Part shown: piece by piece, positions 1-9,619 of the stretch
Layout: the number at the start of each line of letters is the position of its first letter
Position numbering within the stretch: the first letter of the stretch is position 1
Virus record (IMG/VR): IMGVR_UViG_2617270957_000009
Coordinates: 1 to 9,619 of that record
Strand: one strand, 5' to 3'
Length of the DNA stretch: 9,619 bases
From: a virus
Lineage: Duplodnaviria > Heunggongvirae > Uroviricota > Caudoviricetes
Made by a program: the position numbers and the translations under genes
Notes under the pieces: generated by a model
What the model saw: the letters and a program-made list of their open reading frames with translations, nothing else
Told to the model about the DNA's origin: nothing
Database searches by the model: none

Positions 1-687
1 CGGCAGGAAACACTGAATGAATGCACCCGTGCGGAGCAGTCGGCCAGCGTGGTGCTCTGGGAAATCGATCTGACAGAGGTCGGTGGAGAACGTTATTTTT
101 TCTGTAATGAGCAGAACGAAAAAGGTGAGCCGGTCACCTGGCAGGGGCGACAGTATCAGCCGTATCCCATTCAGGGGAGTGGTTTTGAACTGAATGGCAA
201 AGGCACCAGTACGCGCCCCACGCTGACGGTTTCTAACCTGTACGGTATGGTCACCGGGATGGCGGAAGATCTGCAGAGTCTGGTCGGCGGAACGGTGGTC
301 CGGCGTAAGGTTTACGCCCGTTTTCTGGATGCGGTGAACTTCGTCAACGGAAACAGTTACGCCGATCCGGAGCAGGAGGTGATCAGCCGCTGGCGCATTG
401 AGCAGTGCAGCGAACTGAGCGCGGTGAGTGCCTCCTTTGTACTGTCCACGCCGACGGAAACGGATGGCGCTGTTTTTCCGGGACGTATCATGCTGGCCAA
501 CACCTGCACCTGGACCTATCGCGGCGATGAGTGCGGTTATCACGGTCCGGCGGTCGCGGATGAATATGACCAGCCAACGTCCGATATCACGAAGGATAAA
601 TGCAGCAAATGCCTGAGCGGTTGTAAGTTCCGCAATAACGTCGGCAACTTTGGCGGCTTCCTTTCCATTAACAAACTTTCGCAGTAA
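1..687 (+). CDS. L: Tail tip protein L, 3' portion (5' end lies upstream of the window)
   Basis: The frame is open from nt 1 (RQETLNECTRAEQSASVVLWEIDLTEVGGERYFFC...) to TAA at 685-687. The translation matches my recollection of phage lambda gpL almost residue for residue, including the Cys-rich C-terminus (CSKCLSGCKF). The ORF track's Met at 49 is internal; the real start is upstream of the window. Confidence 0.93.
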   Translation, partial: RQETLNECTRAEQSASVVLWEIDLTEVGGERYFFCNEQNEKGEPVTWQGRQYQPYPIQGSGFELNGKGTSTRPTLTVSNLYGMVTGMAEDLQSLVGGTVVRRKVYARFLDAVNFVNGNSYADPEQEVISRWRIEQCSELSAVSASFVLSTPTETDGAVFPGRIMLANTCTWTYRGDECGYHGPAVADEYDQPTSDITKDKCSKCLSGCKFRNNVGNFGGFLSINKLSQ

Positions 688-692
688 ATCCC

Positions 693-1436
693 ATGACACA
701 GACAGAATCAGCGATTCTGGCGCACGCCCGGCGATGTGCGCCAGCGGAGTCGTGCGGCTTCGTGGTAAGCACGCCGGAGGGGGAAAGATATTTCCCCTGC
801 GTGAATATCTCCGGTGAGCCGGAGGCGTATTTCCGTATGTCGCCGGAAGACTGGCTGCAGGCAGAAATGCAGGGTGAGATTGTGGCGCTGGTCCACAGCC
901 ACCCCGGTGGTCTGCCCTGGCTGAGTGAGGCCGACCGGCGGCTGCAGGTGCAGAGTGATTTGCCGTGGTGGCTGGTCTGCCGGGGGACGATTCATAAGTT
1001 CCGCTGTGTGCCGCATCTCACCGGGCGGCGCTTTGAGCACGGTGTGACGGACTGTTACACACTGTTCCGGGATGCTTATCATCTGGCGGGGATTGAGATG
1101 CCGGACTTTCATCGTGAGGATGACTGGTGGCGTAACGGCCAGAATCTCTATCTGGATAATCTGGAGGCGACGGGGCTGTATCAGGTGCCGTTGTCAGCGG
1201 CACAGCCGGGCGATGTGCTGCTGTGCTGTTTTGGTTCATCGGTGCCGAATCACGCCGCAATTTACTGCGGCGACGGCGAGCTGCTGCACCATATTCCTGA
1301 ACAACTGAGCAAACGAGAGAGGTACACCGACAAATGGCAGCGACGCACACACTCCCTCTGGCGTCACCGGGCATGGCACGCATCTGCCTTTACGGGGATT
1401 TACAACGATTTGGCCGCCGCATCGATCTTCGTGTGA
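693..1436 (+). CDS. K: Tail tip assembly protein K (N-terminal JAMM/MPN metalloprotease-like domain plus C-terminal NlpC/P60 cysteine peptidase-like domain)
   Basis: 247-aa ORF starting 6 nt after the L stop. It carries a JAMM motif, H-x-H-x7-S-x2-D, in VHSHPGGLPWLSEAD (His codon at 894-896), and NlpC/P60-type Cys/His residues (TDCYTLF, PNHAAIY, LLHH). An alternative internal ATG at 837 would give 199 aa but would remove the N-terminal part of the MPN fold. No clear Shine-Dalgarno precedes 693, so the start is probably coupled to L. Confidence 0.88.
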   Translation: MTQTESAILAHARRCAPAESCGFVVSTPEGERYFPCVNISGEPEAYFRMSPEDWLQAEMQGEIVALVHSHPGGLPWLSEADRRLQVQSDLPWWLVCRGTIHKFRCVPHLTGRRFEHGVTDCYTLFRDAYHLAGIEMPDFHREDDWWRNGQNLYLDNLEATGLYQVPLSAAQPGDVLLCCFGSSVPNHAAIYCGDGELLHHIPEQLSKRERYTDKWQRRTHSLWRHRAWHASAFTGIYNDLAAASIFV

Positions 1437-2005
1437 AAACGGGGGCTGAAGCCATCCGGGCACTGGCCACACAGCTCCCGGCGTTTCGTCAGAAACTGAG
1501 CGACGGCTGGTATCAGGTACGGATTGCCGGGCGGGATGTCAGCACGTCCGGATTAACGGCGCAGTTACATGAGACTCTGCCTGATGGCGCTGTGATTCAT
1601 ATTGTTCCCAGAGTCGCCGGGGCCAAGTCAGGTGGCGTATTCCAGATTGTCCTGGGGGCTGCCGCCATTGCCGGATCATTCTTTACCGCCGGAGCCACCC
1701 TTGCAGCATGGGGGGCAGCCATTGGGACCGGTGGTATGACCGGCATCCTGTTTTCTCTCGGTGCCAGTATGGTGCTCGGTGGTGTGGCGCAGATGCTGGC
1801 ACCGAAAGCCAGGACGCCCACAGCGACCAGCACGGATAACGGTAAGCAGAACACGTATTTCTCTTCACTGGATAACATGGTTGCCCAGGGCAATGTTCTG
1901 CCTGTTCTGTACGGTGAAATGCGCGTGGGGTCACGCGTGGTTTCTCAGGAGATCAGCACGGCAGACGAAGGGGACGGTGGTCAGGTTGTGGTGATTGGTC
2001 GCTGA
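1334..2005 (+). CDS. I: Tail tip assembly protein I
   Basis: 223-aa ORF with an N-terminal ubiquitin-like region and a Gly/Ala-rich hydrophobic segment (GGVFQIVLGAAAIAGSFFTAGATLAAWGAAIGTGG). Its position between K and J, and its 103-nt out-of-frame overlap with the 3' end of K, match the lambda arrangement. Confidence 0.9.
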   Translation: MAATHTLPLASPGMARICLYGDLQRFGRRIDLRVKTGAEAIRALATQLPAFRQKLSDGWYQVRIAGRDVSTSGLTAQLHETLPDGAVIHIVPRVAGAKSGGVFQIVLGAAAIAGSFFTAGATLAAWGAAIGTGGMTGILFSLGASMVLGGVAQMLAPKARTPTATSTDNGKQNTYFSSLDNMVAQGNVLPVLYGEMRVGSRVVSQEISTADEGDGGQVVVIGR

Positions 2006-2023
2006 TGCAAAATGTTTTATGTG

Positions 2024-2044
2024 AAACCGCCTCCGGGCGGTTTT
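2024..2044 (+). other. Stem-loop in the I-J intergenic region (possible attenuator or RNA stability element)
   Basis: AAACCGCC-TCCG-GGCGGTTTT forms an 8-bp GC-rich stem with a 4-nt loop and a short T run. It sits inside the late operon between I and J, so it is unlikely to be a full terminator. The J ribosome-binding site (GGAG, GAGGA) follows at 2053-2065. Confidence 0.35.
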
Positions 2045-2065
2045 GTCGTTTATGGAGCGTGAGGA

Positions 2066-5000
2066 ATGGGTAAAGGCAGCAGTAAGGGGCATACCCCGCG
2101 CGAAGCAAAGGACAACCTGAAGTCCACGCAGTTGCTGAGTGTGATCGATGCCATCAGCGAAGGGCCGGTTGAAGGTCCGGTGGATGGATTAAAAAGCGTG
2201 CTGCTGAACAGTACACCGGTGCTGGACAGTGAGGGAAATACCAACATCTCCGGCGTCACGGTGGTGTTCCGGGCAGGTGAGCAGGAACAGACACCGCCGG
2301 AGGGATTTGAATCATCAGGTTCCGAGACGGTACTGGGTACGGAAGTGAAATACGACACGCCGATCACCCACACCATTACGTCTGCAAACATCGACCGTCT
2401 GCGCTTTACCTTCGGTGTGCAGGCACTGGTGGAAACCACTTCAAAGGGGGACCGTAATCCATCGGAAGTCCGCCTGCTGGTTCAGATACAGCGTAACGGT
2501 GGCTGGGTGACGGAAAAAGACATCACCATTAAGGGCAAAACCACCTCGCAGTATCTGGCCTCGGTGGTGGTGGATAACCTGCCTCCGCGCCCGTTCAACA
2601 TCCGGATGCGCAGGATGACGCCGGACAGCACCACAGACCAGCTGCAGAACAAAACGCTCTGGTCGTCATACACCGAAATCATCGATGTGAAACAGTGCTA
2701 CCCGAACACGGCACTGGTCGGCGTGCAGGTGGACTCGGAACAGTTCGGCAGCCAGCAGGTGAGCCGTAATTATCATCTTCGCGGGCGCATTCTGCAGGTG
2801 CCGTCGAACTATAACCCGCAGACGCGGCAATACAGCGGTATCTGGGACGGGACGTTTAAACCGGCATACAGCAACAACATGGCCTGGTGTCTGTGGGATA
2901 TGCTGACCCACCCGCGCTACGGCATGGGTAAACGTCTTGGTGCGGCAGATGTGGATAAATGGGCGCTGTATGTCATCGGCCAGAATTGCGACCAGTCGGT
3001 GCCGGACGGTTTTGGCGGCACGGAGCCGCGCATCACCTGTAATGCGTACCTGACCACACAGCGCAAGGCGTGGGATGTGCTCAGTGATTTTTGCTCGGCG
3101 ATGCGCTGTATGCCGGTATGGAACGGGCAGACGCTGACATTCGTGCAGGACCGACCGTCGGATAAGGTGTGGACCTATAACCGCAGTAATGTGGTGATGC
3201 CGGATGATGGCGCGCCGTTCCGCTACAGCTTCAGCGCCCTGAAGGACCGCCATAATGCCGTTGAGGTGAACTGGATTGACCCGGATAACGGCTGGGAGAC
3301 GGCGACAGAGCTTGTGGAGGACACGCAGGCCATTGCCCGTTACGGTCGTAACGTCACGAAGATGGATGCCTTTGGCTGTACCAGTCGGGGGCAGGCACAC
3401 CGCGCCGGGCTGTGGCTGATTAAAACGGAGCTGCTGGAAACGCAGACCGTGGACTTCAGCGTGGGCGCAGAAGGGCTTCGCCATGTACCGGGCGATGTCA
3501 TTGAAATCTGCGATGATGACTATGCGGGTATCAGCATCGGCGGGCGCGTGCTGGCGGTGAACAGCCAGGCGCGGACACTGACGCTCGACCGTGAAATCAT
3601 GCTGCCATCCTCCGGCACCACGCTGATAAGCCTGGTTGACGGAAATGGCAATCCGGTCAGCGTGGAGGTCCAGTCCGTCACCGACGGCGTGAAGGTGAAA
3701 GTGAGCCGTGTTCCTGACGGCGTTGCCGGATACAGCGTGTGGGGACTGAAGCTGCCGACGCTGCGCCAGCGCCTGTTCCGCTGCGTGAGTATCCGTGAGA
3801 ACGACGACGGCACGTATGCCATCACCGCCGTGCAGCATGTACCGGCAAAAGAGGCCATCGTGGATAACGGGGCGCACTTTGACGGCGACCAGAGCGGCAC
3901 GGTGAATGGTGTCACGCCGCCAGCAGTGCAGCACCTGACTGCCGAAGTCACCGCAGACAGCGGGGAGTATCAGGTACTGGCCCGCTGGGACACGCCGAAG
4001 GTGGTGAAGGGCGTAAGTTTCATGCTTCGCCTGACCGTGGCAGCGGATGACGGCAGTGAGCGGCTGGTCAGCACAGCCCGGACGGCGGAAACCACATACC
4101 GCTTCACACAACTGGCGCTGGGGAACTACAGGCTGACAGTCCGGGCAGTAAATGCGTGGGGGCAGCAGGGCGATCCGGCATCGGTATCGTTCCGGATTGC
4201 CGCACCGGCAGCGCCGTCGCAGATTGAGCTGACACCGGGGTATTTTCAGATAACCGCCACGCCGCATCTTGCGGTTTATGATCCGACGGTACAGTTTGAG
4301 TTCTGGTTCTCGGAAAAGCGGATTGCGGATATCAGGCAGGTTGAAACCACAGCACGCTATCTTGGCACGGCGCTGTACTGGATAGCCGCCAGTATCAATA
4401 TCAAACCGGGCCATGATTATTATTTTTACATCCGCAGTGTGAACACCGTTGGCAAATCGGCATTTGTGGAGGCTGTTGGCCAGCCGAGTGATGATGCATC
4501 CGGCTATCTGAATTTTTTCAAAGGAGAGATAGGGAAAACCCATCTGGCTCAGGAGTTGTGGACGCAGATTGATAACGGTCAGCTTGCGCCTGACCTGGCT
4601 GAAATCAGGACGTCCATTACGGGTGTCAGCAATGAAATCACGCAGACCGTCAATAAGAAACTGGAAGACCAGAGTGCAGCGATCCAGCAGATACAGAAGG
4701 TTCAGGTTGATACAAATAATAATCTGAACAGCATGTGGGCTGTGAAGCTGCAGCAGATGCAGGATGGACGCCTTTATATTGCGGGTATCGGTGCCGGTAT
4801 TGAGAACACCCCTGACGGCATGCAGAGTCAGGTGCTGCTGGCGGCGGACAGGATTGCGATGGTTAATCCTGCGAATGGCAACACAAAACCGATGTTTGTT
4901 GGTCAGGGCGATCAGATATTCATGAACGACGTGTTCCTGAAACGCCTGACGGCCCCCACCATTACCAGCGGTGGAAATCCACCGGCATTTTCCCTGACAC

Positions 5001-5548
5001 CGGACGGGCGGCTGACGGCGAAAAATGCCGATATCAGCGGTAACGTGAATGCGAACTCCGGGACGCTCAACAACGTCACGATTAACGAGAACTGTCGGAT
5101 TCTGGGAAAACTGTCAGCTAACCAGATTGAAGGTGATATTGTCAAAACGGTGGGAAAAGCCTTTCCGAGAAATGGCAGTTATGCCAGCGGTACAATAACG
5201 GTCACTGTGTACGATGACCAGGCTTTTGACCGTCAGATAGTAGTCCCCCCCGTTCTGTTTCGCGGTGGTAAGCATGAAAACTTCAACAGCAACAACCAAC
5301 AGTCATACTGGTATTCAACCTGTAAGCTGCAGGTGCTGAAGAACGGACAGGAAATCTTTCAGCAACCCGCGACGGATGTCAGCAGGGTATTTTCATCAGT
5401 CATTGATATGCCTGCCGGACACGGCCATGTCACCCTGACTTTCAATGTTTCTTCATATGGTGCAAATAACTGGACGCCAACGACCAGTATCAGCGACCTT
5501 CTTGTTGTCGTGATGAAGAAATCAACAGCCGGTATCAGTATCAGTTGA
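2066..5548 (+). CDS. J: Central tail fibre / host specificity protein J
   Basis: 1160-aa ORF with a strong RBS (GAGGA 5 nt before ATG). The N-terminal roughly 800 aa match my recollection of lambda gpJ ([34 protein letters not shown]...), including a fibronectin-III-like segment. The C-terminal roughly 350 aa are a mosaic of conserved islands ([38 protein letters not shown]) and divergent stretches. Stop is TGA at 5546-5548. Confidence 0.95.
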
Positions 5549-5565
5549 ATTTTAAAACCCAAATT

Positions 5566-5593
5566 CGGGCACCAGAAATGGTGCCTTTTTTAT
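5566..5593 (+). terminator. Rho-independent terminator downstream of J
   Basis: Stem GGCACC (5568-5573) / GGTGCC (5580-5585) with loop AGAAAT, followed by TTTTTTATTT, 20 nt after the J stop. Confidence 0.7.
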
Positions 5594-5606
5594 TTGTGGA
5601 GTGAAT

Positions 5607-7961
5607 ATGGCAGTACAGATTTCAGGTGTGCTGAAAGACGGTGCAGGAAAACCGATACAGAACTGCACCATTCAGCTCAAAGCAAAACGTAACAGCACCA
5701 CGGTTGTGGTAAACACGGTGGCCTCAGAAAATCCGGATGAAGCCGGACGTTACAGCATGGATGTCGAGTATGGCCAGTACAGCGTTATCCTGCTGGTTGA
5801 AGGTTTTCCGCCTTCACATGCCGGGACCATTACCGTCTATGAAGGTTCCAGTCCGGGGACGCTGAATGATTTTCTCGGTGCCATGACGGAAGATGATGTC
5901 ATGCCGGAGGCATTGCGTCGTTTTGAGGCAATGGTGGAAGAAGCGGCACGCAACGCCGAAGCCGCCTCTCAGAGCGCAGCGGCGGCAAAGAAATCCGAAA
6001 CTGCAGCGGCATCATCGAAGAACGCGGCGAAAACCTCAGAAACGAATGCAGCTAATAGTGCACAGGCGGCAGCGACCTCACAGACTGCATCGGCAAACTC
6101 CGCGACAGCAGCCAAAAAATCAGAAACCAACGCGAAAAATAGCGAGACAGCCGCAAAGACGAGTGAAATCAACGCAAAGTCCAGCCAGACGGCAGCGAAG
6201 ACCAGCGAAACGAATGCCAAAGCCAGTGAAACTGCGGCGAAAAGCAGTCAAGCTGCAGCAGCCGAAAGCGAGAGTGTTGCAGCCGGTTCTGCGACTTCAG
6301 CAGCTGGATCAGCAACTGCTGCGGCTAACAGCCAGAAAGCTGCGAAGACGAGTGAAACTAACGCAAAGTCCAGCCAGACGGCAGCGAAGACCAGCGAAAC
6401 GAATGCCAAAGCCAGCGAAACTGCGGCGAAAAACAGTCAGGATGCAGCAGCCGAAAGCGAGAGTGCTGCAGCTGGTTCTGCAACAGCGGCAGCTAATAGC
6501 CAAAAAGCTGCAAAAGCCAGTGAAACTAACGCAAAGACGAGTGAAACAAAAGCAGCAGCTAGCGAGACAGAAGCAACGTCAGCCGCAACAAGAGCAGAGA
6601 ATGCAGCCCGGATTGCAGAAGATGCCGCTGATCCTGCTTCTGTCCCTCCGCTTCCTGATATCTGGCTACCCATGAATGATTCTCTGGAAGCGATAACAGG
6701 GTATGCCCCGGGCTATAAAACAATAACCATCGGCAGTGATGAAATAACAATGCCTGTTAATGGCATATGCCAATTTAGCCGGGCTTCATCTGCAACGTAT
6801 ATTGATAAGTCAGGGCATATTACCGTGGCAGGGAATAACGTTCCTCGTTTTGAAAAATATGGTTTGCTGATAGAGAATCAGCGAACAAACATGTTCGTAA
6901 ATAGTTTTAATCCTGATGCCTGGAATAAAAGCGGTGGTATATCTGTAACATCATCAACAGATGAATTTGAGTTTAAATATGGACGTTTCACAGTAGGAAG
7001 CGACATAGCAGGAACGACAACAGGGAGAAATATATGCACAGTTGCTGGTAATAAAGGCATAGATGTGACTGGCGATGATCAGTACAGTAAAGGTCCGTAT
7101 GTTACCGCGTCGTTCAGGGTAAGAAGTGATCTCAATGTTCGCGCACGTATCCGTTTTGAACGGTATAACTCGGAAGGATACACTTTCCTTTGTGACGCCT
7201 ATTTGTCATTACAGACCCATGAACTACAAATTACGGGTGGTAATGCCCAGCTATTAACAGCAAACTTTGAAATCGATCCAGGTAGTGGATGGATATATTT
7301 TCAGGCAACCCTGAAATGTTTGCCAGAATGGGGAATGGTTGGTACGCAGTTGCAAATTGCAGCCGACAGAGCTGTGGGGTCTTTTGCAACAGGTGACTGG
7401 ATAGAAGTAACCACCCCGCAATTTGAGTATGGTGCTTGTGCAACTTCCTTTATCATAACGACAACAGAGCCAGCTACTCGTGCATCAGATTTATGTAAAT
7501 TTCCGCTGATGAAAAATATGTATACCATGCCTTTTACGTTCATGGTGGAAGTCCATAAAAACTGGTTTATTTCTCATAATGCTGCACCGCGTGTCATTGA
7601 TTCAGAAAATCACCAGTCCGGGGGCCCATTTATTATGGGGTTTGGTTCTTCTGGAACTATCAGTCAGGACGGTTATTCGTATTGCGATATAGGCGGGGCT
7701 AACCGACGTGTATATGAGTCATGCGGAGTAAGAGATCTCGTTATGGGATTCAGGGTTAAGGCTGACGGCATGACATGCTCATTTGCAAATAAGCATATAA
7801 GCACAGAAACAAAAACAGTATGGAAATATATTCGTGAAGCTGCTGTGATTCGTATCGGGGGACAAACGACGACAGGATTACGACACCTTAATGGTCATAT
7901 AAAAAACCTCCGTTTCTGGAACAGAGCATTGTCAGATACGCAGCTTAAGGAATACGTATAA
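5607..7961 (+). CDS. stf: Side tail fibre protein (lambda Stf-like N-terminus, Ala/Ser-rich repeat shaft, LamG/concanavalin A-like C-terminal domain)
   Basis: The ORF track starts at GTG 5601, but ATG 5607 with GGAG at 5598-5601 (5-nt spacer) is the better start, giving MAVQISGVLKDGAGKPIQNCTIQLKAKRNSTTVVVNTV..., which matches the conserved N-terminus of lambda Stf. The middle is repetitive (AAKTSETNAK...). The C-terminus ends in ...IRIGGQTTTGLRHLNGHIKNLRFWNRALSDTQLKEYV, typical of the final strands of LamG-type jelly-roll domains. Stop is TAA at 7959-7961. Length is 784 aa from ATG 5607. Confidence 0.88.
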   Translation: MAVQISGVLKDGAGKPIQNCTIQLKAKRNSTTVVVNTVASENPDEAGRYSMDVEYGQYSVILLVEGFPPSHAGTITVYEGSSPGTLNDFLGAMTEDDVMPEALRRFEAMVEEAARNAEAASQSAAAAKKSETAAASSKNAAKTSETNAANSAQAAATSQTASANSATAAKKSETNAKNSETAAKTSEINAKSSQTAAKTSETNAKASETAAKSSQAAAAESESVAAGSATSAAGSATAAANSQKAAKTSETNAKSSQTAAKTSETNAKASETAAKNSQDAAAESESAAAGSATAAANSQKAAKASETNAKTSETKAAASETEATSAATRAENAARIAEDAADPASVPPLPDIWLPMNDSLEAITGYAPGYKTITIGSDEITMPVNGICQFSRASSATYIDKSGHITVAGNNVPRFEKYGLLIENQRTNMFVNSFNPDAWNKSGGISVTSSTDEFEFKYGRFTVGSDIAGTTTGRNICTVAGNKGIDVTGDDQYSKGPYVTASFRVRSDLNVRARIRFERYNSEGYTFLCDAYLSLQTHELQITGGNAQLLTANFEIDPGSGWIYFQATLKCLPEWGMVGTQLQIAADRAVGSFATGDWIEVTTPQFEYGACATSFIITTTEPATRASDLCKFPLMKNMYTMPFTFMVEVHKNWFISHNAAPRVIDSENHQSGGPFIMGFGSSGTISQDGYSYCDIGGANRRVYESCGVRDLVMGFRVKADGMTCSFANKHISTETKTVWKYIREAAVIRIGGQTTTGLRHLNGHIKNLRFWNRALSDTQLKEYV
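6156..6512 (+). repeat. In-frame near-perfect tandem duplication (189-nt unit = 63 aa) inside the stf shaft region
   Basis: Copy 1 at 6156-6344 and copy 2 at 6345-6512 are almost identical at nucleotide level (AAGACGAGTGAAA.CAACGCAAAGTCCAGCCAGACGGCAGCGAAGACCAGCGAAACGAATGCCAAAGCCAG...). Copy 2 lacks a 21-nt segment (GSATSAAGSATAAANSQ versus GSATAAANSQ). Degenerate shorter units encoding AAK(T/S)SETNA extend from about 5985 to about 6570. Confidence 0.85.
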
Positions 7962-8230
7962 TGCGGGATATAACATTACGATTCGATAACAGAGAACAGT
8001 TTAACGCAATTGTATATGACAGTGGCCTGTTCAGTCTTGAAGAAGAAAACGGGGTTCTTGTTGATGTTATTGGCTGCATTATCGATTACGAGGAGCCAGA
8101 AAACGAAAGATGTACAGGCATTGATCGCGGTGGTTTTTTCGTAAACATGAGGATTGTTGATAGCAGTAAAAACATATCTTCTTTAATGCCTTTCATTACG
8201 ACAGATCAGCATGTAAGGACATGGGCTTAA
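7961..8230 (+). CDS. Hypothetical small acidic protein (89 aa), translationally coupled to stf; function unknown
   Basis: Its ATG at 7961-7963 overlaps the stf stop codon (TAATG), and AAGGAA lies 8 nt upstream. The ORF is A+T-rich and acidic (MRDITLRFDNREQFNAIVYDSGLFSLEEENGVLVDVIGCIIDYEEPENER...). I recognise no motif. It does not resemble lambda-type Tfa. Confidence 0.6.
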   Translation: MRDITLRFDNREQFNAIVYDSGLFSLEEENGVLVDVIGCIIDYEEPENERCTGIDRGGFFVNMRIVDSSKNISSLMPFITTDQHVRTWA

Positions 8231-8242
8231 TGGAGTAAGACA

Positions 8243-9283
8243 ATGGTTACAAAAACAGTAATTCCTGAAGACATCAAAACGCTAAAATCCGACGTTAGAA
8301 AATTAAAAAACGATCAAGGAAGCTACGCAACAAAATCATATGTAGACAGCAAAGATGAAACCGTTGGTGACTGGTCTGCTTCATGGTATCAGCAGGTATT
8401 GCCAACTAGCGGAGCTATATTTGGGAGAAAACTCCGCTCAACTCACCGGACGGCAGGTGTTGAGGATGCGTATTGCGAACTATACCTCAAAAAATGGATA
8501 GACAGTCCAGGTAACGCAATGGCGCGCCTTAACCTGAACGATAACGGGACAAACATTTGCTGGGACTTTACCAACCTTTATGGCGGTACGATGATTTTTC
8601 CCGGTGGCAGCGGATACCTCAAAATGGGTAACTGCCTTATGTCATACAGCAAGCGTGGAAGTAACGCGCTTATTAAATTTGATTACACCGACACATTACA
8701 GATCAAATATGCTAATCATGGGTCAACCATGACATTAAACACACAGGGAACCGCTTATGCTGGTGTTACCGCTAAATTGTGGGGCAACTCCAGCCGTCCT
8801 GTTGTTTATGAAGTCGGTGTTGATGGTGGCGCTTATATGTTCTACGGTCAGAAACAAACCGATAATACCTATGCGTTCGCTGTTAATGGTGCATGTCATG
8901 CCACCGCCTTTAACCAGGCTTCCGACCGAGATCTGAAAGATAATCTTCAGGTGATTGATAATGCAACAGATCGCATCCGCAAGATGAACGGCTATACCTA
9001 TACCCTTAAGGAAAACGGTATGCCCTATGCAGGTGTCATTGCACAGGAAGCTCTGGAAGCAATCCCGGAAGTTGTAGGCTCCGCAATGAAATATCAGGAC
9101 GGTGGAAACGGCTCGGAAGGGGAAGAAGGTGAGCGTTACTACACTGTAGATTATTCTGGTATTACTGGCTTGCTTGTTCAGGTAGCCAGAGAGTCAGACG
9201 ACAGAATAACAGCACTGGAAGAAGAAAACGCAGAATTAAGACAAAGATTATCTGCAATTGAGGCGGCGCTTGCGTCTAAATAA
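8243..9283 (+). CDS. Tail fibre / tailspike-like protein with C-terminal peptidase S74 intramolecular chaperone (auto-processing) domain
   Basis: GGAG lies 7 nt upstream of the ATG. The C-terminal roughly 120 aa fit the S74 chaperone-domain pattern: SDRDLKDN...(K)MNGYTYTLKENG.PYAGVIAQEALEAIPEVV...ERYYTVDYSGITGLLVQVARE, followed by a coiled-coil-like tail (ITALEEENAELRQRLSAIEAALASK). The N-terminal 226 aa are Gly/Thr/Tyr-rich and beta-rich in character. Confidence 0.82.
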   Translation: MVTKTVIPEDIKTLKSDVRKLKNDQGSYATKSYVDSKDETVGDWSASWYQQVLPTSGAIFGRKLRSTHRTAGVEDAYCELYLKKWIDSPGNAMARLNLNDNGTNICWDFTNLYGGTMIFPGGSGYLKMGNCLMSYSKRGSNALIKFDYTDTLQIKYANHGSTMTLNTQGTAYAGVTAKLWGNSSRPVVYEVGVDGGAYMFYGQKQTDNTYAFAVNGACHATAFNQASDRDLKDNLQVIDNATDRIRKMNGYTYTLKENGMPYAGVIAQEALEAIPEVVGSAMKYQDGGNGSEGEEGERYYTVDYSGITGLLVQVARESDDRITALEEENAELRQRLSAIEAALASK

Positions 9284-9289
9284 TATTAA

Positions 9290-9312
9290 GGGGCCGAGCG
9301 CCCCGTTTTATT
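9290..9312 (+). terminator. Rho-independent terminator after the S74 fibre gene
   Basis: Stem GGGGC (9290-9294) / GCCCC (9300-9304) with a 5-nt loop, followed by GTTTTATT, immediately after the TAA stop at 9281-9283. Confidence 0.65.
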
Positions 9313-9325
9313 GGGTAGGATGAAA

Positions 9326-9619
9326 ATGGATATAACACCTTTCCTTCATGCACTTTGTGCTGTGGCTGCACAGCTACTGATTGGTCTTTTTACCGGGAAC
9401 TGGGCTTACGGAGCGATAGTCGGTTGTACGTTCTTCATTGCGCGTGAACACACCCAGGCAGAATATCGCTGGATTGAAATGTTCGGGCATGGCAAGCGAA
9501 TGAATATGCCGTGGTGGGGCGGTTTTGATCCTCGTGCTTGGGATGTGGCAAGCCTGATGGATTTTGCTGTGCCGGTGGTGGCGTGTCTGCTGGTCTGGCT
9601 GTTGGTTAATCGTGGGTGA
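9326..9619 (+). CDS. Small predicted inner-membrane protein (about 97 aa, three hydrophobic segments), function unknown
   Basis: The ORF runs to TGA at 9617-9619. AGGA at 9317-9320 is well spaced for ATG 9326; in-frame alternatives are ATG 9320 and TTG 9311. Hydrophobic helices: FLHALCAVAAQLLIGLFTG, AYGAIVGCTFFIA and LMDFAVPVVACLLVWLLV, with a Trp/Gly-rich loop (PWWGGFDPRAWD). I do not recognise the family. Confidence 0.6.
   Translation: MDITPFLHALCAVAAQLLIGLFTGNWAYGAIVGCTFFIAREHTQAEYRWIEMFGHGKRMNMPWWGGFDPRAWDVASLMDFAVPVVACLLVWLLVNRG

Follow-up and report, generated by a model that had tools for sequence, protein, structure and literature searches.

A Small Membrane Protein Gene Found beside Phage Receptor-Binding Genes and in Bacterial Kdo/Capsule Loci May Act in Envelope Glycan Assembly

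Several conversion genes lie beside phage tailspike or fiber genes, including P22 gtrABC, Sf6 oac, the epsilon15 polymerase-inhibitor genes, D3 iap, and CUS-3 neuO. The gene for HK97 gp15 is embedded among tail genes, and T5 Llp and phi80/N15 Cor are lipoproteins. P22 gtrABC is a prophage-expressed interference system (PMC10883804), and membrane-protein morons predominate in lambda-like coliphages (PMC6969025). Here we describe a gene at the end of a 9,619-nucleotide stretch of Caudoviricetes DNA (IMG/VR record IMGVR_UViG_2617270957_000009, positions 1 to 9,619; hereafter the window). The gene (9326..9619, plus strand; stop codon TGA at 9617-9619) encodes a 97-residue membrane protein of the PHROG 1443 family. 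[quoted passage not shown]

Profile comparison placed the window protein in PHROG 1443, whose function is not assigned (E 1.8e-58; residues 3-98 of a 99-residue form against positions 1-96 of the 97-position profile). The protein carries the hallmarks of the family, R40, E41, Q44, A45, E46, W72, and three helices, and we found 457 homologs of it. Pfam, NCBIfam, and PADLOC profile searches with the window protein gave no meaningful match (0 families in PADLOC), and a Pfam scan of 101 diverse family members returned only scattered weak matches to transmembrane (TM) segments (the PhoR N terminus in eight members, VirB3 in four). The family profile had one chance match among PDB sequences (E 0.83), and no fold relative was found. 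The original prediction that a small three-TM protein unlikely to be structural is encoded here agrees with the predicted structure and hydropathy described below and with these searches, which matched no known structural or lysis family. In the sources searched, almost every member is called "hypothetical protein"; phage 21 has "putative membrane protein," one UniRef entry reads "Transmembrane protein," and one further name is evidently a mis-annotation. Literature searches on the family, its accessions, its locus tags, and the concept found no paper on the PHROG 1443 protein; the paper that describes several of the related lambda-like phages goes no further than noting the predominance of membrane-protein morons, and the presence of the family in bacterial capsule/Kdo loci is not recorded in the annotation sources searched.

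The gene is widespread. Of 5426 complete E. coli genomes, 1900 (35%) contain DNA that matches it, with a median of two and a maximum of seven copies per carrying genome, which places the gene among the commonest unexplained genes of E. coli prophages. DNA comparison also identified it in 53 deposited coliphage records and protein comparison in 73 phage records, including the classic phage 21, and we found a relative on 433 viral contigs in IMG/VR. A HMMER search of 1.84 billion representatives yielded 425 clusters at 50% identity; among the 150 clusters listed, the proteins are 57-146 residues long, mostly 90-120, and none contains a fused extra domain. The family motif is conserved across Alpha-, Beta-, and Gammaproteobacteria and Desulfuromonadota, and in a neighbor-joining tree the family broadly tracks host taxonomy. 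Among 38 distinct alleles from E. coli prophages, the ratio of nonsynonymous to synonymous polymorphism (pN/pS) was 0.11, indicating that the gene is under purifying selection.

In all 13 phage contexts that we examined, the gene lies directly downstream of distal tail, fiber, or tailspike genes, with at most one open reading frame (ORF) of 70-95 codons between them. In lambda-like E. coli prophages, the type represented by the window, it follows the fiber module. It overlaps or abuts the fiber gene in HP1/P2-like prophages of Aeromonas and Leclercia, follows a fiber gene and a 71-codon ORF in a 186/P2-like Enterobacter prophage, and is found at the fiber module of a P1-like Leclercia element (L172). 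In a siphovirus prophage, it comes after a spike gene encoding Tail_spike_N and SGNH-esterase domains. An Ackermannviridae-like Salmonella phage (relatives Det7, Ag3, and P46FS4) carries it between two pectate-lyase tailspikes, Cobetia phage Carin-5 (154 kb) between spike genes, and Halomonas phiHAP-1 after a tail fiber assembly gene and before the sheath gene. It is also found with fiber or tailspike genes in Comamonas, Trichlorobacter, and Chelativorans prophages and in a Leclercia tailspike prophage. The adjoining receptor-binding proteins bear glycan-directed modules, namely S74, pectate lyase, SGNH esterase, and Laminin_G_3 domains. None of the phage loci examined has a glycosyltransferase gene as a neighbor of the family gene. 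The presence of the gene in virulent phages and inside structural operons speaks against a function limited to lysogeny.

The second habitat emerged from a species-representative scan (one genome per species), which gave 80 loci. The gamma- and betaproteobacterial loci examined were prophage contexts; most of the alphaproteobacterial loci examined were ordinary chromosome. Among 76 immediate upstream neighbors, seven were Capsule_synth proteins (KpsS/KpsC-type beta-Kdo transferases) and four were Poly_export/SLBB proteins (KpsD-type). When the annotated proteins of two loci were compared with every ORF, 25 of 47 alphaproteobacterial loci proved to have Kps/Kdo genes within 6 kb of the family gene. 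The family gene usually lies 2-70 nt downstream of a KpsS-like or KpsD-like gene on the same strand, and we distinguished at least four arrangements, spread over Sphingomonadales and Hyphomicrobiales. In the first, KdsA and, on the opposite strand, a sulfatase-family gene are accompanied by the series KpsS-like gene, family gene, epimerase, and UDP-glucose dehydrogenase. The second consists of a GT2 gene, a KpsD-like gene, and the family gene, with KdsA, PhyH, KpsF, and KpsU. In the third, KdsA, PhyH, and the family gene diverge from a series composed of KpsF, KpsU, a phosphatase, a KpsC-like gene, and a GT4 gene. The fourth, from Hyphomicrobiales, runs from a KpsD-like gene through an outer-membrane protein gene to the family gene, KdsA, KpsU, and KpsF. 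PHROG annotation of the neighbors in diverse genomes was largely uninformative, and two flanking neighbors in Leclercia and Silvania loci fell into no recognizable class.

The homologs in capsule loci share 45-55% identity with the phage protein and have retained all of its conserved residues. Conserved synteny with KpsS/C, KpsD, KdsA, KpsF, and KpsU holds for the alphaproteobacterial homologs and not for the window gene, which belongs to a prophage. In the neighbor-joining tree, the copy from a Chelativorans prophage groups with the Hyphomicrobiales capsule-locus copies, a placement that is consistent with exchange between chromosome and phage.

Kps capsule is made inside the cell, attached to a lipid anchor, before its export via KpsMT-KpsE-KpsD (PMC11041684). 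KpsS transfers beta-Kdo to phosphatidylglycerol, and the linker is extended by KpsC (PMC12220298). In four Sphingomonadales loci (L144, L179, L181, and L121), conserved neighbors of the KpsS-like gene and the family member encode a PhyH-type dioxygenase and a membrane protein of the sulfatase family (LtaS/EptA-like), and L179 has a fatty-acid hydroxylase and a short-chain dehydrogenase/reductase as well. Since we saw no KpsM, KpsT, or KpsE gene within 10 kb, the product of such a locus might be a Kdo-glycolipid and not a classical capsule.

To describe the protein itself, we used an AlphaFold2 model from an 80-sequence alignment. The model has a mean predicted local distance difference test score (pLDDT) of 94.8 and three helices, at residues 4-23, 26-53, and 74-96. 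H8 and Q16, both near-invariant, belong to TM helix 1 (residues 4-23; window 9335..9394, plus strand), which also carries a GxxxG motif (G20, G24). TM helix 2 has a short hydrophobic part (residues 26-39; 9401..9442, plus strand), which hydropathy shows to consist of about 14 apolar residues, and the helix then runs on to residue 53 as a polar extension. A conserved loop, predicted to be cytoplasmic (residues 40-73; 9443..9544, plus strand), leads to TM helix 3 (residues 74-96; 9545..9613, plus strand), which contains near-invariant P83; the C-terminal tail past this helix averages about five residues. The family motif reads (A/G)RE-x-(T/A)QAEYRWI ... G-x-G-x-R-x-NMPWWGGFDPR-x-W. R40, E41, and W72 are invariant across 101 diverse members, down to about 30% identity, and H8, Q44, A45, E46, R58, and P83 are kept in at least 90% of these members, a striking degree of conservation in a membrane protein this small.

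The distribution of charge in the same 101 members indicates how the protein may sit in the membrane. Lysine and arginine together average 5.4 in the loop between TM2 and TM3 and 0.09 in the turn between TM1 and TM2, and by the positive-inside rule, this bias predicts that the N terminus is inside, the conserved 34-residue loop cytoplasmic, and the C terminus outside. We therefore predict a 97-residue integral inner-membrane protein composed of a TM1-TM2 hairpin, a cytoplasmic loop, and TM3. With this topology, H8, R40, E41, Q44, E46, R58, and W72 are predicted to lie on the cytoplasmic membrane face. H8, at the cytoplasmic end of TM1, and R40 and E41, at the cytoplasmic end of TM2, would share this face, a pattern expected of a site for a ligand or lipid headgroup or of a catalytic center rather than of a mere anchor.

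As the protein is common to Kdo/capsule loci and to glycan-directed phage modules, an envelope glycoconjugate assembly factor is the most economical interpretation, and the shared neighborhoods suggest a role in cell-surface sugar assembly. For the window gene, we propose, with a probability of roughly 0.4 and on the basis of gene neighborhoods only, that its product is a late-transcribed accessory protein on the cytoplasmic face of the inner membrane that acts on envelope glycan assembly. At the cytoplasmic face, its partner would be a sugar intermediate linked to lipid, or else the export machinery or peripheral transferase that handles such an intermediate; the predicted position of the conserved loop fits the intracellular, lipid-anchored synthesis of capsule, which takes place on the same side of the membrane. 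Its chromosomal relatives would serve pathways for capsule or glycolipid of the Kdo-linked, Kps type. A phage would retain a copy beside fibers and tailspikes that bind or cut glycans, and the infected or lysogenic cell would then alter or reduce the surface glycan that they recognize. Such a change could guard against superinfection or keep progeny from being lost on cell debris. Lysogenic conversion or exclusion, raised in the original prediction, is plausible in a receptor-related form, and the link to capsule loci sharpens it. A more far-reaching version, possible but more doubtful, holds that the family is a conserved, hitherto unrecognized part of the inner-membrane apparatus that assembles Kdo-linked (Kps-type) capsule or glycolipid, acting from the cytoplasmic side on the lipid anchor or its transferases. 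Phages with at least five unrelated architectures would have acquired it, kept it tied to their receptor-binding genes, and used it to shut down or remodel the surface glycan of the host during infection or lysogeny.

Several considerations weigh against a role in glycan assembly. The family has no homology to any characterized protein, and assigning it this function would be guilt by association. E. coli kps loci lack such a gene, and for several carrier phages the host strain is given as K-12 or E. coli C; E. coli K-12 has no Kps capsule. The enterobacterial target would therefore not simply be KpsS/C. That the protein is so highly conserved beside receptor-binding proteins whose specificities differ widely speaks against tailoring to particular receptors and fits a generic membrane function equally well; if glycan assembly is affected, the enterobacterial target would have to be general, such as a lipid, a step in the handling of Kdo, or the export machinery, and not a sugar specific to one serotype. 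Some half of the alphaproteobacterial loci fall outside recognizable capsule loci, for example adjoining rpoC or an ABC transporter, and 97 residues is small for an enzyme. Linkage to fiber genes could in part be hitch-hiking with a recombination-prone cassette. Moreover, the late read-through that would express the window gene (see below) is borrowed from lambda biology.

The main rival explanation is generic superinfection exclusion, in which the protein would block entry of incoming phage genomes at the inner membrane in the manner of HK97 gp15, T4 Imm, or P22 SieA, independently of any glycan. A small phage inner-membrane protein encoded in or beside tail genes would suit such a role, as would its frequency in E. 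coli prophages, its occurrence in both temperate and virulent phages (as with Imm-type proteins), and the predominance of membrane-protein morons in lambda-like coliphages cited above (PMC6969025). However, orthologs with the same conserved residues reside in non-prophage chromosomal Kdo/capsule operons, where exclusion makes little sense. The same protein also accompanies sipho-, myo-, and Ackermann-type tails, whose routes of DNA entry differ, and neither PADLOC nor Pfam matched it to a known exclusion family. We consider this explanation unlikely, if the best of the alternatives.

We regard as more improbable still that the protein helps assemble fibers or tailspikes, by aiding their folding, trimerization, or attachment from the genomic place of Tfa/gpG-type chaperones. 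The gene always comes directly after receptor-binding genes and is embedded in the structural operons of virulent phages; in phage HannyBb, it sits at the site of a tail fiber assembly gene remnant, and a 186-like prophage that carries it has no recognizable assembly-protein homolog among its called genes. However, S74 fibers carry an intramolecular chaperone and need no separate one, phiHAP-1 has both an assembly gene and the family gene, and known fiber chaperones are soluble. In addition, the receptor-binding proteins are mutually unrelated, although the family protein is >60% identical across them, and the chromosomal orthologs in capsule loci have no fiber to assemble.

A small holin or antiholin, which the original prediction had also allowed, or another membrane protein that times lysis, is disfavored, and we give it very little credence. 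In its favor are the size of about 100 residues with three TM helices, an M-K-M sequence at the N terminus of the longer window form, which resembles the dual-start motif of lambda S, and a weak Phage_holin_8 match (E 0.0036) in one distant member of the 101. The window protein itself matched no holin profile, and its predicted N-in/C-out topology with almost no C-terminal tail is the opposite of that of class I holins. Carriers have separate lysis cassettes (holin and lysozyme in L175, LysC in L004, and LydB in L172) with no endolysin gene adjacent to the family gene, and homologs lie in chromosomal capsule loci. We rejected a dual-start holin in particular, since the MKM start is found only at one of the two types of fiber junction described below and is not a feature of the family. 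It is just as improbable that the gene is a small mobile passenger that hitch-hikes with fiber cassettes without benefit to the phage: although fiber modules are recombination hot spots and the gene is found at the borders of cassettes, with two types of junction, it shows strong purifying selection (pN/pS 0.11), has a motif deeply conserved across the four groups named above, and is retained in virulent phage genomes.

The reading frame of the window gene is complete, with TGA as the final three bases of the window, and the ORF is real, with a corrected start. An in-frame ATG at 9320 would produce a 99-residue form with the MKM extension, but the conserved start is the ATG at 9326 (MDITPF..., 97 residues), to judge from the sequence and its homologs. 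A Shine-Dalgarno-like sequence, GGGTAGGA (9313..9320, plus strand), read directly from the sequence, ends 5 nt 5′ of ATG 9326, the spacer being set by AGGA at 9317-9320, and it abuts the non-conserved ATG 9320. Homologs are mostly 95-98 residues long with the N terminus MD(I/L)(T/S)P, D2 is invariant in 80 close and moderately distant members (alignment A1), and the identical 97-residue sequence is already recorded in E. coli. At the alternative junction, AAAGGAGG stands at the same distance from ATG GAT with no ATG upstream; the MKM extension is confined to the hairpin-type junction.

The original prediction also pointed to a GC content distinct from that of the upstream cassette. The GC fraction of the membrane protein gene is 0.513, compared with 0.451 for the 346-residue fiber gene and 0.393 for the 89-residue ORF upstream of it. 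However, the gene matches the mean of the window (0.524, standard deviation 0.07 in 300-nt windows). The contrast with its neighbors is real but small, falls within the noise of a mosaic region, and is no evidence of a separate origin.

The immediate upstream neighbor, at 8243..9283 (plus strand), encodes a 346-residue tail fiber (phrog_4563) with a C-terminal Peptidase_S74 intramolecular chaperone domain (PF13884, E 4.3e-13), and 36 nt separate it from the ORF as counted from ATG 9320. Within this gap, a GC hairpin, GGGGC/CGAGC/GCCCC (9290-9304), and a T-run, GTTTTATT, make up a terminator-like 3′ end of the fiber cassette (9290..9312, plus strand). The hairpin has five GC pairs, and its 61-nt context folds at -17.1 kcal/mol (z = -1.3). 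A terminator scan gave two hits, which are the two strands of this one hairpin, against 0.5 expected. The hairpin is plausibly a modest intrinsic terminator.

Comparison of related prophages revealed two kinds of junction. The hairpin-type junction (S74 fiber, hairpin, GGGTAGGATGAAAATGGAT) occurs in HannyBb (L001) and in 42 related E. coli prophage loci. In 36 other loci, among them Lambda_4C10 (L002) and the Rac prophage of BL21(DE3), the gene starts 12 nt after a phrog_1361 ORF of about 92 codons, with a strong Shine-Dalgarno sequence and no hairpin. Because megablast similarity between the two junction types begins at window position 9317, the hairpin belongs to the inserted 346-residue fiber cassette and is not the boundary of an independent transcription unit. 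Thus, the gene does lie beyond a hairpin and T-run, as had been stated, but this terminator is modest and specific to one junction type. The S74 fiber gene plus hairpin (window 8243..9312 versus L002 4721-5011) look like a cassette inserted between the ORF of about 90 codons and the membrane protein gene, with 42 loci having it and 36 lacking it.

The distance from the T-run to the ribosome-binding site is only about 11 nt. A sigma-70 consensus scan, which atypical promoters could escape, found no promoter-like site between the fiber gene and the ORF at either junction type, bearing out the earlier remark that the terminator leaves essentially no room for a promoter. Over positions 8900-9619, the single consensus match (9/12 at 8933-8962) is at chance level (one found, 0.9 expected). 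No terminator-like site was found 3′ of the gene, in the 90 nt after it in HannyBb; the window itself ends at the stop codon.

In lambdoid late operons, Q-modified RNA polymerase reads through intrinsic terminators. The membrane protein gene, apparently without a promoter of its own, would be the last gene of the L-K-I-J-Stf-... late operon and would be co-transcribed with the fibers. By extension from lambda, terminator-resistant (Q-type) late transcription would pass the small upstream hairpin. The likely answer to the puzzle of the expression route, which the original prediction had left unclear, is therefore Q-dependent late read-through together with the fiber genes. The term "moron" used there suits the gene in part: it is a real gene whose product does not look structural, but no promoter of its own was found, the hairpin belongs to the fiber cassette, the gene elsewhere overlaps or abuts the fiber gene or lies between tailspikes, and some carriers are virulent and have no lysogenic state.

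The window as a whole is the distal portion of a lambda-like late tail operon, with every listed gene on the plus strand. Homologs of lambda L (49..687), K (693..1436), I (1334..2005), and J (2066..5548) are followed by a gene for a 786-residue Stf-like side tail fiber (5601..7961). This fiber has an N-terminal phage_tail_N domain, a shaft of Ala/Ser/Thr/Lys repeats, and a C-terminal domain homologous to Laminin_G_3 fibers. Its C-terminal residues, about 220 in number (window 6900-7961), match two Laminin_G_3 (ConA-like lectin) fibers of the P1-like Leclercia element (L172 2892-6601) with E 5e-15 and 3e-15; Pfam gave no LamG match for the window fiber itself. In the ORF list, GTG 5601 (VNMAVQISG...) is given as the start of the Stf-like gene. 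ATG 5607 (MAVQISGVLKDG...) seems more natural and is the probable start; its product presumably resembles the N terminus of lambda Stf. A 189-bp tandem repeat within the gene (window 6141-6554; about two copies, 83-92% matches) encodes shaft repeats of the SETNAK/SQTAAK type and accounts for the extreme AT skew (0.4-0.6) at 5850-6750. A 625-codon ORF (2666..4543, minus strand) antisense to J, in coding sequence rich in GC (0.58-0.64), is long but most likely spurious.

Between the Stf-like gene and the S74 fiber gene lies an ORF for an 89-residue acidic protein (7961..8230, plus strand) of the phrog_1361 family, the usual immediate upstream partner of the membrane protein gene in E. coli prophages. 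Proteins of this family are acidic, about 90 residues long, and share MRD-x-LRF...VWA. An ORF of this type follows each LamG-type fiber in lambda-like, P1-like, and Comamonas prophages (L172 4994-5278 and 6601-6888; L002 4721-4999; L099 5714-5998), and its product may be a fiber-specific chaperone. We rejected this ORF as an obligatory, family-wide partner of the membrane protein, since phmmer found homologs in only four Escherichia-type loci among the species-representative loci.

The regions beyond the gene in related prophages vary. In HannyBb (6440-7238), past the position at which the window ends, a relic of the C terminus of a tail fiber assembly protein is followed by a DNA invertase gene on the opposite strand, and this region is probably a dead invertible fiber segment. 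In BL21, too, Rac contains pinR along with a partial pseudogene for an assembly protein. As the inverted repeats in HannyBb and Rac are short and at chance level only, we rejected an invertible-segment switch controlling the gene. In Lambda_4C10, an insertion sequence with three mobile-element ORFs (2137-4553) separates the fiber gene from the pair formed by the 92-codon ORF and the membrane protein gene, and a moron encoding the sitABCD manganese/iron transporter lies downstream on the opposite strand (5397-8846).

These results are relevant to both habitats of the family. In phages, the gene is often present in several copies per genome and travels with receptor-binding modules, the very parts that are swapped in host-range engineering. 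If its product alters glycans or excludes phages, it would bear on the design of phage-therapy cocktails, the serotype of lysogens, capsule expression, and host-range prediction. If phages do use it to switch off or remodel a host glycan, it would represent a new, widespread class of factor that acts through glycans in host takeover or self-exclusion and that roughly one in three E. coli genomes carries. In bacteria, our survey flags an unannotated gene within Kdo/capsule loci of Sphingomonadales and Hyphomicrobiales, and the alphaproteobacterial gene may be a missing accessory of the capsule pathway anchored on Kdo-phosphatidylglycerol.

How does the PHROG 1443 protein compare with described phage proteins? 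Like the products of the serotype-conversion genes (P22 gtrABC, Sf6 oac, and others), it is a phage-borne membrane or membrane-associated factor encoded beside a receptor-binding gene; those factors act on the polysaccharide that the fiber recognizes, and some are very small hydrophobic proteins. Unlike them, it has no transferase partner and no relation in sequence or fold (no GtrA or acyltransferase match), is also found in virulent phages, is conserved beside differing specificities, and has chromosomal relatives in Kdo/Kps rather than O-antigen loci. It also differs from the GtrA flippase, which has about 120 residues, four TM helices, and GtrB/GtrC partners, in having three helices, no GtrA profile match, and no glycosyltransferase neighbor. 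With HK97 gp15, T4 Imm, and P22 SieA, it shares the character of a small phage-encoded inner-membrane protein, but there is no homology, and the PHROG 1443 protein has non-phage orthologs in capsule loci and a strictly conserved motif predicted to be cytoplasmic. T5 Llp and phi80/N15 Cor resemble it in their genetic linkage to a receptor-binding protein gene. In contrast to these, the PHROG 1443 protein is polytopic and has no lipobox ([LVI][ASTVI][GAS]C): residues 8-11 are H-A-L-C, with Leu at -1 and no basic n-region, and C11 is not one of the positions conserved in the diverse alignment. The class I holin lambda S is similar in size, in its three TM helices, and in the MKM start seen in the window; the differences are an opposite predicted topology, the absence of a charged C-terminal tail, the long conserved loop between TM2 and TM3, the absence of an adjoining endolysin gene, and the non-conservation of MKM. 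A final likeness, offered as an analogy only, is to KdhB, which we take to be a small membrane protein: it is a second component encoded immediately downstream of, and overlapping, the gene for a Kdo-acting enzyme, much as the PHROG 1443 gene follows glycan-directed spikes in phages and stands beside Kdo-pathway genes in bacteria.

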